A stretch of 64,000 bases of DNA from Promethearchaeota archaeon. GTDB lineage: Archaea; Asgardarchaeota; Lokiarchaeia; Sigyniarchaeales; SOKP01. The translations under genes and the position numbers were made by a program. The stretch is from contig JAUVNS010000017.1 of the NCBI GenBank assembly GCA_030599585.1, forward strand, positions 1 to 64,000, read 5' to 3'. Numbering within the stretch: position 1 is the stretch's first letter; each line of letters opens with the position of its first letter. Under the pieces are notes generated by a model, which searched no databases, was not told the DNA's origin, and saw nothing but the letters and a program-made list of their open reading frames with translations. Below are positions 4,708-10,495 of this stretch, in pieces.

Positions 4708-5799
4708 ATGCAATCTAAAACTCCAACAAAGGCGGAAAACCTTCAGTATCTTTTAATTAATTTCGTAGAATCGCTGGATGATGTTATAATAGCTTTTATT
4801 TATTCAAAAGATGGGCTGTTATTGGCAAAATATGGAAAAACAGAAGGTACAATAGCAAAAGAACGGGAAAAAGAGGATGTTTATGGCGCAATTACTGGTA
4901 TCGTTGAAAATCTACTAGATAAAATAAGTTTAGAGTATAAATCTGGTCGTTATGGTAGCGGTTCGTTTGAAACTGACGATAATCGTATAATTTACTTGGA
5001 AGCGGGATTTGACGCAACACTCTTATTGGTCTGTGATTATGAAACAAATTTAAATAAGATTTTTCCAATAGCATATCTTGTTGTCGAGAAGATTGCTCAG
5101 TTACTTGAAGACAGTTTTGATTTTAAATACAATACTTTAGAAATTCCAAATCTAGACATTCACGATTCCTTCTCTTTAGGATTTGAGAAGTTTTCAATTC
5201 AAGATTCAACGCCTATCGTAGATGGAGTAAAGGCAATTCATCAATTTGAGAAAGAAGAACTGATAGAAAGATTATTTAAATTAATTATACTCGGTTCTGC
5301 AGCAGTTGGAAAAACCACTTTAGTGAATCGGTTTTTGAAAAAAGAAAATATCGTTGATTATAGGCCCACATTGGGTATATGTCTTTCCACACAACAATAT
5401 TATGTCCAAGGCTTTAAAGACGACGTTATAAAGTTTTTAATATGCGATTTAGCGGGGCAAAGTTTTTTCAAACGCGTGAGGAGAGAATACTACAAAGGTG
5501 CCAACTGCGCGTTTATAGTTTACGATGTTACTAGAAGAGATACTTTTGAAGAAGCGATAAATGTTTGGTATGAAGATGCCAAAAAAGAATTAGGAAATAT
5601 TCCATTTGTTCTCATTGGAAATAAAATCGATAAGGAAGATGAAAGAGAGGTATCGAAAGAAGAAGGATTAGCAAAAGCAAAAGAAATAAAAAGTTCTTTC
5701 ATAGAAACCTCAGCATTACAAAATATAAATGTTCAAGACACATTTAAAATTATAGGGATAGGATTGTTCTTTAAACATTTTGAAGAGAACCATAATTAA
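4708..5799 (+). CDS. Roadblock-like domain fused to a Rab-like small GTPase
   Basis: C-terminal GSAAVGKT, PTLG, DLAGQ, NKID, ETSA (G1-G5). The N-terminal AFIYSKDGLLLA resembles roadblock/LC7. Confidence 0.85.
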   Translation: MQSKTPTKAENLQYLLINFVESLDDVIIAFIYSKDGLLLAKYGKTEGTIAKEREKEDVYGAITGIVENLLDKISLEYKSGRYGSGSFETDDNRIIYLEAGFDATLLLVCDYETNLNKIFPIAYLVVEKIAQLLEDSFDFKYNTLEIPNLDIHDSFSLGFEKFSIQDSTPIVDGVKAIHQFEKEELIERLFKLIILGSAAVGKTTLVNRFLKKENIVDYRPTLGICLSTQQYYVQGFKDDVIKFLICDLAGQSFFKRVRREYYKGANCAFIVYDVTRRDTFEEAINVWYEDAKKELGNIPFVLIGNKIDKEDEREVSKEEGLAKAKEIKSSFIETSALQNINVQDTFKIIGIGLFFKHFEENHN

Positions 5800-6984: not shown

Positions 6985-9855
6985 TTAGATTTTAAGTAGG
7001 TAATTAGGATCTTGTCTCATTTTCAGCCTTATTCTATATTTCCTTAGTTCGTCAACTACAGAAACGCTAAATGCGGCAATAAAGAGAGTTACCCAGTGAT
7101 ACCATTGTGTTAAAGGTACTACATGAAATGCTACGCCTAATGGTGTGTAAAGAATTAAAAGTTGTAAGGCAAGTGAAAGTCCTGTAGCCCAGAATAAATG
7201 CTTATTAGGAAATTTGTAGAACGGTTTTATATTGCTTGTACACGTATAAACAAATAATAGCTCACAGATCACTAAATTCGTAAATAGAATTGTCTGAGCA
7301 AGACTTATGGCATATGTTTGGGATACCCCTGGACTTAAATAACCTGCTAAATTTGGATCTATAACGCTCCACGCAGGAATAAGAACTGTCCAAAGAAGAA
7401 TGTAAAGAGTGATGTCGGTAACTGAAGTATATATTCCTAGTAGCAAAGCGGGACCTCTTATTTCTTTTAATAACGTAAATCCTTTTCTTGGGGGTCCTTT
7501 CATAACATCGGGATCTGTTGGTGTCAGCCCTAAAACCATCGCTGGGATGCCATCTGTGGCTATATTTAACCAAAGTATTTGAATTGGCTCGATTGGTGTT
7601 CCGATAAAAACATTAACAAATAGCTTCATGACAATGTACGCAACCAAAATCAGAAAAATTTCGTCAAAATTCGTCGAAAGCATATAACGGAAGAAATTTT
7701 TGGTCGTTTCAAAGATTCCTCTACCTTCTTCTATTGCGTTTACAATAGTTGCGTAATTATCATCGATAAGTATCATATCTGAAGCTTCTTGAGTGACTTC
7801 AGTTCCTTTTAAACCCATTGCTACTCCTACATGAGCACCTTTTACAGCTGGAGCATCGTTAACCCCATCACCGGTCATGGCAATCACTAAATCGAGTTCC
7901 TTCAGTCTCTTTAAAATTCTAAGTTTATGTTCTGAAGTTACCCGTGCGAAAACATCAACGGTTTTAACTTTTTCTCGTAATTCGTCATCGCTCATTTCTT
8001 CCAAATCTTGTCCTGTAATTGTTTCATCTGATTCAGTTAGACCAATTTGTTGTGCGATTGCTAAGGCAGTTACCTTATGATCTCCCGTGATCATGATCGT
8101 ACGGATACCCGCCATTCTAGCTTCTTTGATTGCGTCTTTAACTTCGTCTCTGGCAGGATCAATGATTCCTACTAAACCAATATAAGTATAATCCTTTTCT
8201 ATATTATTGAGATCGTATCCCGTTTCTAACTCTTTATACGCTACTCCAAGAACCCTCAAAGCACCTGTAGCAAATTGGTTATTTTGGTTTAATATTTTAT
8301 CTTTTCCGTTCTCAATTGATTTGCTTTCGCCATCTAATAATACATGAGAAGCATTTCTCATCATTATATCTGGAGCTCCCTTTATGAAAGCAAATAATTT
8401 ACCATCTAATTTACCAATTACGCTCATCATCTTCCGATCAGAATCGAAAGGAATTTCGTCTAATTTCTCAAAAGATTCGTTAAGTTTCGTTTTCAAAGCT
8501 AAGACTTTCATGGAGATTTCAGTAGGATCGCCGACAACACTAACTTCTCCCGTTTTTTGGTCGAGAATATTTACGTTAGAGTTGTTGCAAAACAAGCAAA
8601 CTTCTAGAAACCGCTTAAGATCAGGATTCATGGTAACAGAGTTTCCAGATTCTTTGATATCCCCTATTATATTATATCCTACGCCATCTACATCGAGTAC
8701 TTTATCGTTTAAATACAATTTCACTACAGTCATTTCGTTTTTTGTCAATGTACCTGTCTTATCGCTACAAATAACATCAACACGTCCTAGCGTTTCTACA
8801 GCCGTTAGTTTCCTGACTAAAGCATTTCTTCCAGCCATTTTTTTCATACCTATACTTAAAACCACCGTGATAACAACAACGAGACCTTCAGGCACTGCCG
8901 ATACAGCTAAGCTTATGGCAATTTTAAACGCGTCGATCATATGCTCTATCTCTTCGGGACCGAAAGCTAAACCTTCTGTAAGTAGTATAATAATTATTTC
9001 TGTAATAAATACGCCAGCACAAATCAATAGAATTGTTATTCCTAATAACTTTCCAAATCGATTTACTTCTACTTGAAAAGGACTAGGTTCTACTATCTCT
9101 TGTTGCAAACTTGTAGCTATTTTTCCTATTTCGGTATTCATCCCCGTCCCAATTACTATTCCTTCTCCATTTCCTCTCGTGATTATCGTGTTCATGTATC
9201 CAAGGTTAATTCTATCAGCTAAAATCAGCTTTTCATCTACAATATCTAACTGTTTTTTTACAGGAGCAGATTCTCCGGTTAAAATAGCTTCATCGACATA
9301 AAGTGAAAATTCTTTAATTAACCTTAAATCTGCTGGAAATTTATCCCCGTCTTCAAAAAGGACAATATCTCCTAGTGCTACATCTTCTACAGCAATTTCA
9401 CTGATTTTACCCCCTCTACGAACCTTAGCAAAATGGGGCGCAAGTTTTTTTAAACTTTCCATCGATCTTTCTGCTTGATATTCCTGATAAAACCCCAAAG
9501 CGGCATTGGCAATTAAGATAGCTGCAATCACTATAGCGTCTGTATATTCCGCAGACCACTCTTCAGCACCAGGCTGAGCACCTTCCCAAATTCCAATAAT
9601 AATTGAAATAGCAATTGCAAAAAGGAGTAAGTATACGAGGAAACTTTTAAATTGTCCAAGGAAAATTTGGAGAGCAGTTTTTCCTTTTTCTTTGATTAAT
9701 TCGTTTTTACCATATTTTTCAAGTCTAGATTGTGCTTCAGCTTCAGACAAACCTTTTTCAATTGAAGTACCTAATGCGTCTATAACTTTATCGATATTCT
9801 CCGAGTGTGCGCTAATCTGTTTTATTTCAGTCATTTTTTCTTCAATTTTTTTCAA
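6985..9855 (-). CDS. Cation-transporting P-type ATPase, type IIA (Ca2+-like)
   Basis: TGES, PEGL, DKTGT, KGAP, TGD and GDGVND motifs; about 10 TM segments. Confidence 0.92.
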   Translation of the reverse strand: MKKIEEKMTEIKQISAHSENIDKVIDALGTSIEKGLSEAEAQSRLEKYGKNELIKEKGKTALQIFLGQFKSFLVYLLLFAIAISIIIGIWEGAQPGAEEWSAEYTDAIVIAAILIANAALGFYQEYQAERSMESLKKLAPHFAKVRRGGKISEIAVEDVALGDIVLFEDGDKFPADLRLIKEFSLYVDEAILTGESAPVKKQLDIVDEKLILADRINLGYMNTIITRGNGEGIVIGTGMNTEIGKIATSLQQEIVEPSPFQVEVNRFGKLLGITILLICAGVFITEIIIILLTEGLAFGPEEIEHMIDAFKIAISLAVSAVPEGLVVVITVVLSIGMKKMAGRNALVRKLTAVETLGRVDVICSDKTGTLTKNEMTVVKLYLNDKVLDVDGVGYNIIGDIKESGNSVTMNPDLKRFLEVCLFCNNSNVNILDQKTGEVSVVGDPTEISMKVLALKTKLNESFEKLDEIPFDSDRKMMSVIGKLDGKLFAFIKGAPDIMMRNASHVLLDGESKSIENGKDKILNQNNQFATGALRVLGVAYKELETGYDLNNIEKDYTYIGLVGIIDPARDEVKDAIKEARMAGIRTIMITGDHKVTALAIAQQIGLTESDETITGQDLEEMSDDELREKVKTVDVFARVTSEHKLRILKRLKELDLVIAMTGDGVNDAPAVKGAHVGVAMGLKGTEVTQEASDMILIDDNYATIVNAIEEGRGIFETTKNFFRYMLSTNFDEIFLILVAYIVMKLFVNVFIGTPIEPIQILWLNIATDGIPAMVLGLTPTDPDVMKGPPRKGFTLLKEIRGPALLLGIYTSVTDITLYILLWTVLIPAWSVIDPNLAGYLSPGVSQTYAISLAQTILFTNLVICELLFVYTCTSNIKPFYKFPNKHLFWATGLSLALQLLILYTPLGVAFHVVPLTQWYHWVTLFIAAFSVSVVDELRKYRIRLKMRQDPNYLLKI

Positions 9856-9954
9856 TTTTGTATTAAAATATTAAACTAAGTATTTTAGATAAATAATAGT
9901 TTTATAAATTATATAAATAAATATAAGCTCATAAAAAAATTAAACTGGTGAAAT

Positions 9955-10332
9955 ATGTTTAAAATATCTTTCTCAAAAACAGCATTGGATTATATCATTC
10001 ATGAACAACAAAATATCGAATCAGAACAGTTAGTAGTAGTACTTTTTTACCATTCCGCTGAAACATGAACAATGTCTCTTTGTGGAAATTTTGTCGAGTT
10101 GGTGGAAAAATTTAAACTCTTAGACGATGACGATTTTGTCAAGCTAAAAGATACTGATATAGACAACGAACAATTAAAAACCAAGCATATCGAAGTATAT
10201 ATTGAAAAACTAATCATTCCTGAGTTAGAAGAAAAACCATTAACCATTATAGATGCGGTAGTAGGAGAAGTTAAAGGTAAAAAAGTAGGTTTGTTGTTCA
10301 TAAAAAAAAAATCAAATGTATACGGTTGTTAA
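9955..10332 (+). CDS. Probable selenoprotein, HesB/IscA-like fold, 125 aa, in-frame TGA (Sec38) at 10066-10068
   Basis: ATG 9955 is preceded by GGTGA. Reads MFKISFSKTALDYIIHEQQNIESEQLVVVLFYHSAET-TGA-TMSLCG... continuing in frame into track ORF 10072..10332. The IEVYIE...IIDA...GLLF...GC pattern resembles HesB/IscA. A SECIS-like hairpin follows the stop directly. Confidence 0.75.
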
Positions 10333-10370
10333 ATGAACTTATCTTGAAAATGTTTGAAGATTAAGTGATT
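10333..10370 (+). promoter_or_regulatory. Eukaryote-like SECIS element in the 3' UTR
   Basis: ATGA(10333-36)-ACTTATCTT-GAAAATGTTTG-AAGATTAAGT-GAT. This gives a UGAN/NGAN core with tandem G.A pairs, a paired helix II (CTTA/TAAG, TCTT/AAGA) and an apical A-run. Confidence 0.75.
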
Positions 10371-10495
10371 CACGGTTGTGCCCGTGCCGTATTTAAAGAA
10401 CTCTCTTTTTTGTTAAACTTGACAATACATTTATAAACATGCCCATCTAATTATTGGTAACTTACTAAATCTAATAAAAAAAATATATGTAAAGA

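Follow-up and report, generated by a model that had tools for sequence, protein, structure and literature searches.

Positions 9955-10332 on the forward strand of the window, the whole stretch of 64,000 nucleotides analysed here, almost certainly form a single selenoprotein gene, in which, as judged from sequence comparisons, the codon UGA38 would be decoded as selenocysteine (Sec) by the Asgard machinery under the control of a SECIS element. The product is predicted by modelling to be a soluble protein of 125 aa with the IscA/HesB fold. Asgard archaea are credited with five to seven selenoprotein families in the main texts of the published surveys and of a 2026 review, none of them HesB-like, and the family is absent from those surveys, as the suggestion of a new Asgard family made in an earlier, sequence-only reading of this DNA implied. 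The features of the locus are the following:

6985..9855, - strand: P2A-type (PMR1/SERCA-like) P-type ATPase, divergent neighbour at a distance of 99 nt, given as context only
9947..9951, + strand: GGTGA, Shine-Dalgarno-like, 3 nt ahead of the ATG, with a nearly equal spacing in homologues
9955..10332, + strand: full coding sequence of the predicted 125-aa IscA/HesB-fold selenoprotein, based on the frame, homologue conservation, the model and fold matches
10066..10068, + strand: in-frame UGA, putative Sec38, opposite E. coli IscA Cys35 in the alignment; 91/91 family members have Sec or Cys here
10081..10083, + strand: Cys43, second half of the U-x4-C motif, Cys in 72/91 members
10327..10329, + strand: terminal Cys125, unconserved, present in 1/91 members
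10333..10368, + strand: lokiSECIS, made up of AUGA, a 9-bp stem bulged at one 3' base, an A-rich 11-nt loop whose last base is G, and GA
10371..10386, + strand: second short G+C-rich hairpin directly 3' of the SECIS, with compensatory changes in homologues

To begin with, translation of the + strand gave an ATG at 9955 behind GGTGA, 37 codons, TGA at 10066-10068 (codon 38) and a frame that stayed open up to TAA at 10330-10332, exactly as the sequence-only reading had described. That reading had also taken the annotated 86-aa frame for the C-terminal part of a gene truncated by standard callers, and a table-11 gene caller indeed returned 10072-10332 (86 aa) only, against the 125 codons of the frame at 9955-10332. 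On the other hand, if UGA38 were a genuine stop, encoded Trp or resulted from an error, the locus would be a pseudogene, or would encode a 37-aa peptide and an 86-aa protein starting at the Met at 10072. This alternative draws on the databases, which mostly hold 85-86-aa products and a few Trp read-throughs, and on the Met or Leu found two codons past the UGA in many genus members; nevertheless, it is very improbable. In particular, the opening strand-helix-strand of the modelled fold is missing from the 86-aa piece, the starts at the 10072 Met seen among homologues were truncated gene calls only, and the Trp at position 38 of some database proteins was a TGA called under code 4, while the neighbouring genes were normally readable under table 11.

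The conservation of the codon argues for Sec. Near-full-length homologues were present in 24 of 61 related genomes, and all 24, at 41-99% identity, had a single in-frame TGA, which fell in the same alignment column. In the wider-family alignment, column 38 was Sec or Cys in 91/91 proteins; among the 83 rows backed by DNA, TGA was found in 78 and TGT/TGC in five, and another eight Cys homologues came from databases. Both sets showed the conservation on either side of codon 38, with TGA or Cys there, that had been expected of a Sec codon, and no Trp, Arg or Gly. Moreover, of the 73 TGA genes whose available 3' DNA was 60 nt or longer, 67 gave a SECIS element and the five Cys genes gave none, and the tandem Sec/Cys/Sec paralogue arrays (L112, L102 and L075) had a SECIS of their own in the Sec copies only. 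The presence of true homologues with Cys at this column and the association of the SECIS with UGA genes both speak against a stop, a Trp codon or an error. Furthermore, a protein-coding codon-position pattern is present on both sides of the UGA, with differences at codon positions 1, 2 and 3 of 0.31, 0.18 and 0.41 before it and of 0.31, 0.16 and 0.51 after it.

The 5' end of the gene was more variable. Behind the fixed GGTGA (window 9947-9957; L006-L024), the start codon was degenerate among homologues (ATG, GTG, TTG, CTG, ATA, GTA or ATT), which may reflect weak initiation or later starts, and three homologues had an in-frame TAA just ahead of codon 1. Several homologues showed no canonical start at codon 1, their N-termini being uncertain. 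RNA-library contigs from two studies spanned the UGA region, although such contigs can show neither transcription nor strand, and a sigma-70 promoter and terminator scan, whose model is unsuited to archaea, stayed at chance levels.

The eukaryote-like SECIS in the 3' UTR, proposed as a hairpin with an AUGA/GA core on the base after the stop, was borne out in position and architecture. The AUGA begins at 10333, the first base past the stop codon, the stem pairs 10337-10345 with 10357-10366 leaving one bulged base, the 11-nt loop (10346-10356) is A-rich with G as its last base, and GA follows at 10367-10368. These features agree with the description of the lokiSECIS (PMC4989117), namely AUGA before and GA after a 9-bp stem, an 11-nt loop A-rich at its start with a final G, and a location near the stop, the stem having here nine positions and one bulged 3' base. 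Eight of its pairs are standard, with a register dependent on the bulge, and the stem is unbulged in many homologues. Because of this 1-nt bulge, which is frequent in the SECIS elements of the genus, a strict 9-bp/11-nt pattern misses the element.

Compensatory changes were observed across 30 homologues in 9/9 pairs of the SECIS stem and in 5/5 pairs of the second hairpin. In the SECIS stem, 94% of the cells were paired, 0/500 shuffles equalled the score and slid controls fell to 38-50% paired, and the second hairpin likewise lay above every shuffle and slid control. These figures carry no probability, as the sequences are related and both alignment and structure were built from them, so that the controls lean in favour. 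The significance of the element comes from this conservation and not from its folding energy, which was not significant by itself (z from -0.6 to -1.7), or from Rfam, in which no SECIS model or other relevant model matched. A single, looser pattern scan of the genome recovered this SECIS together with those of the VhuU, HdrA, VhuD and PrxL-like genes; it gave 28 matches compared to 11-13 in shuffled sequences, a high background that makes it a generator of leads only.

A G+C-rich hairpin, often with GC/GU in the loop, was also seen 0-6 nt past the lokiSECIS of several unrelated selenoprotein genes of the genome, and no description of such a second hairpin was found in the main texts of PMC4989117 and PMC11227280. 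In addition, an 8-nt direct repeat lies on either side of the SECIS (10321-10329 and 10371-10379). Its first copy lies in the conserved coding end V-Y-G, which is missing in several homologues, so that an alternative pairing of a lower stem is not required.

All the Sec machinery looked for was found in the genome. There were two Sec-type SelD genes, each with a TGA, and matches to SepSecS (E 1e-112), a PSTK-like protein (E 5e-45) and an EFSec-like protein (E 2e-68), the latter two under their curated cut-offs. The two Sec-containing selD genes lie ~3 kb apart (G000:C34:187468-191178). A G+C scan with a local cmscan located the tRNA-Sec just upstream of SepSecS (C28:16776-16922, + strand; L139:277-423), with a score below the curated cut-off. 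The tRNA has two introns, in the anticodon loop and in the T loop, because of which it was missed by ARAGORN and by a whole-genome RF01852 search; the T-loop intron alone was described for tRNA-Sec in PMC4989117.

The fold anticipated from the sequence, HesB/IscA with Sec in the loop after the second strand, was recovered by modelling. The AlphaFold2 model built with the 24 homologues (pLDDT 77, pTM 0.71) consists of a strand-helix-strand unit, a low-confidence loop (residues 34-43) in which both U38 and C43 lie, and a C-terminal half rich in beta structure. The confidence of the Sec loop is low (pLDDT ~61), and the predicted geometry of U38 and C43 belongs to this part of the model. Foldseek placed IscA and SufA at the top (E 2e-3, probability 1.0), with proteins of the IscA/SufA/DsrR type in nine of the 11 top rows. 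An independent all-against-all structure alignment gave Z values of 8.4 for IscA, 7.7 for SufA and 6.1 for DsrR, compared to 2.4 for the next unrelated protein. Two Lactobacillus HesB-like proteins and HI1723 were also in the top structure list, and the IscA/SufA/DsrR type made up the top seven VIA rows. The best match, IscA 1r94 (Z 8.4), had an rmsd of 3.5 over 97 aligned residues with 12% identity; although a Z near 8 is middling taken alone, the entire top of the list belongs to one family.

Searches of Pfam, NCBIfam and PDB sequences with the protein or the alignment gave nothing meaningful, and hhalign against the single E. coli IscA returned a probability of 0.6%, the likeness in sequence to IscA being not significant by itself. 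In a multiple alignment through intermediates, U38 fell on E. coli IscA Cys35, and the C-terminal C-x-C of IscA had no counterpart; the equivalence of U38 and Cys35, which this alignment suggests, is best taken as probable. Moreover, the Cys homologues weakly matched TIGR01911 (E 1.8e-4), NF041239, NF038090 and PF01521, and an ESM Atlas query with the natural Cys homologue P0092 gave scores below 0.9 towards PF01521 and PF28096, which serve only as leads.

Comparison with known systems placed the protein close to, and outside, several of them. It shares with the HesB-like family TIGR01911, of Methanococcus maripaludis and anaerobic bacteria, a small size, a relation to IscA, a single Sec and an IscA/HesB fold whose second strand is followed by the Sec-bearing loop, and the match of TIGR01911 cited above was that of P0092. 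However, HesB-like selenoproteins are listed with the motif U-x-G-P (PMC13188914), compared to U-x4-C-G-N here, so that the U-TMSL-C arrangement does differ from the Gly-rich HesB loop, as proposed. Furthermore, the window protein did not match TIGR01911 and its best relative reached 22.1 bits (cut-off 66.35), the model has 92 positions against ~125 aa, and a lokiSECIS is used here. For distant Asgard members that have U and C side by side, the best family match was the CC/Se motif family NF041239 (PF28096), at up to 38.6 bits against a cut-off of 40; this family also had weak matches in 2/24 close homologues, but its cut-off was passed in 0/400 Asgard genomes, and the U-x4-C protein has no vicinal pair and no match. 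As for the A-type carriers IscA/SufA/ErpA (PF01521) and DsrR, the fold and the alignment of U38 with Cys35 are shared; these carriers have three conserved Cys, whereas here Sec takes the Cys35 site, the C-terminal C-x-C is absent, the gene lies outside any isc or suf operon and PF01521 had no match in the genome. Thus, the protein looks like a HesB-like selenoprotein, yet it fails the HMM and motif tests of TIGR01911, NF041239 and the A-type carriers.

The known lokiSECIS genes (SelD, HdrA, VhuD, VhuU and PrxL; PMC4989117, PMC11227280) resemble this one in SECIS architecture and in its position at the stop, and the family is in neither main-text list, of five families in 2016 and of seven in 2024. 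In the latter survey, AhpF-N and DsbA-like proteins were added from homology searches of >400 genomes with the known families (PMC11227280), with HesB unmentioned in its main text. Four of the known Asgard families are listed in PMC11291895, and the 2026 review (PMC13188914) does not name HesB-like proteins among the Asgard families.

The family is widespread in Asgard archaea, as seen by sequence searches. Homologues appeared in 60/400 Asgard genomes with a broader profile and in 89/400 with a still broader one, the 89 genomes covering nearly every other family of the class, plus three or four from outside the class. The distribution was patchy within the family (53/134 genomes), with 4/54 in one genus. 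The conserved motif is U-x4-C (U-x4-C-G-N), in which only position 38 is invariant: Cys43 is missing from Cys-only paralogues, which have a single conserved Cys, and from most distant members. Two clades had a second thiol at +5, distant U-C members had it at +1, and other members had none. The terminal Cys125, considered as a ligand or part of the motif, was rejected for being private to the genome studied, and this element of the initial proposal was therefore dropped. The tree from the 91-protein alignment, which has few columns, a midpoint root and long branches among distant rows, showed two supported clades, U-x4-C-G-N (55 rows, including the gene studied) and Cys-only (13 rows), besides an unresolved U-S-x3-C paralogue set and the distant forms U-C, U-G-G and U-S-G. 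The paralogue arrays (L112:3083-4405, L102:511-1869, L128 and L075) lie between the P-type ATPase and conserved membrane genes.

Regarding function, a redox or sulfur/selenium-transfer role with Sec38 as nucleophile is given about an even chance and is favoured over an Fe-S carrier, because Sec/Cys38 alone is invariant, the second thiol moves or vanishes, and the other two ligands of IscA are gone. A fixed cluster site would suit this pattern less well than a catalytic nucleophile for which a resolving Cys is optional. Rings closed by a C-x4-C disulfide are known from flavoprotein disulfide reductases. In the proposed mechanism, EFSec and Sec-tRNA would be recruited by the 3' SECIS and UGA38 read as Sec; Sec38, in a flexible loop between strands 2 and 3 at the position of IscA Cys35, would be the reactive nucleophile, and Cys43 the resolving thiol closing a U-x4-C selenenylsulfide ring. 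On this view, an A-type-carrier scaffold would underlie a small protein for thiol/selenol redox chemistry or for the transfer of sulfur or selenium; instead of bearing an entire cluster itself, it would probably protect or service Fe-S enzymes. The genes nearby include none for a redox partner.

A role as a non-canonical A-type Fe-S carrier or as a repair factor is possible, with a lower probability. Here U38 and C43 of two subunits, or of paralogue heterodimers, would hold a cluster received from IscU and delivered to clients such as aconitase. The IscA fold and the Sec at the Cys35 position are consistent with it. IscU/NifU-type scaffolds are present in the genome, where Pfam models turned up no SufBD and no canonical A-type carrier, so that the protein studied is the only IscA-fold protein detected. 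The conserved Cys of the Fe-S proteins HdrA and VhuD serve in cluster ligation. In the same organisms, the Sec of HdrA and VhuD falls at conserved Cys positions in alignments (PMC4989117). Moreover, in 14 examined loci the gene has an aconitase gene as its convergent neighbour; however, this link is lost in the genus and lies within a generally syntenic block of related genomes. The missing C-terminal C-x-C, the single conserved Cys of the Cys-only paralogues, the variable spacing of the second thiol and the patchy distribution also count against a carrier, as does a Methanococcus HesB-like mutant unimpaired in nitrogen fixation (PMC11097638, quoted there as unpublished). In its more specific form, the family would be an A-type Fe-S carrier of Lokiarchaeia in which a Sec ligand replaces the three-Cys set and the Sec/Cys/Sec paralogues cooperate, which is doubtful; if true, the Asgard selenoproteome, with the other unlisted SECIS genes, would be far larger than published and would reach into Fe-S biogenesis.

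It is unlikely that the protein is a redox regulator or metal-binding accessory of the divergent ATPase, loosely analogous to animal SELENON/SERCA: the ATPase scores best with PMR1/SERCA models, clusters with the gene in 50 of ~66 loci examined (usually divergent, some loci being the same genome twice) and flanks one paralogue on both sides (L126), but inheritance may account for the synteny of these related loci, no ATPase lies near the distant Asgard homologues or near several paralogues, and the ATPase falls outside the heavy-metal P1B type. Roles other than these are more unlikely still. Copies of the family with TGA were found in closed single-contig genomes, among them G044 (three copies, e.g. 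C1:1470511-1470807), G055 and G050; this and the U-x4-C variant make the question of HesB-like function testable, the M. maripaludis HesB-like protein having been labelled with 75Se and being without known function (PMC11097638). Elsewhere in the neighbourhood, window positions 4708-5799 encode, as judged by eye, a Rab-like small GTPase with a Roadblock/longin-like part joined to its N-terminus, kept beside the gene in 14 loci.

Finally, further SECIS-bearing candidates were noted in the genome. An aconitase-like match with two TGA on C24 was discarded, its alignment merely running beyond the stop. At G000:C26:252454 (+ strand; L136), a good SECIS-like element with a second hairpin follows a short Cys-rich frame ending in TGA-TAA; it may indicate a C-terminal Sec of this frame or belong to no gene yet. 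Two small frames have one in-frame UGA each: a two-helix membrane-like one (G000:C21:176537-176740, + strand; L135:2538-2744), with a SECIS 13 nt past the stop and one distant homologue also with TGA, and a hydrophobic one with G-G-G-U-P-S-T-C (G000:C34:226574-226777, + strand; L138:2575-2778), whose SECIS overlaps the stop and which has one TGA in each of four genus homologues. The remaining candidate selenoprotein, of 156 aa (G000:C40:116834-117301, + strand; L137:1835-2302), has a half resembling MoaD/ubiquitin by eye ahead of an adjacent UGA-UGA (D-U-U-A-D) and a lokiSECIS overlapping the stop, and was present in 45/50 family genomes, nearly all with 2-3 TGA.
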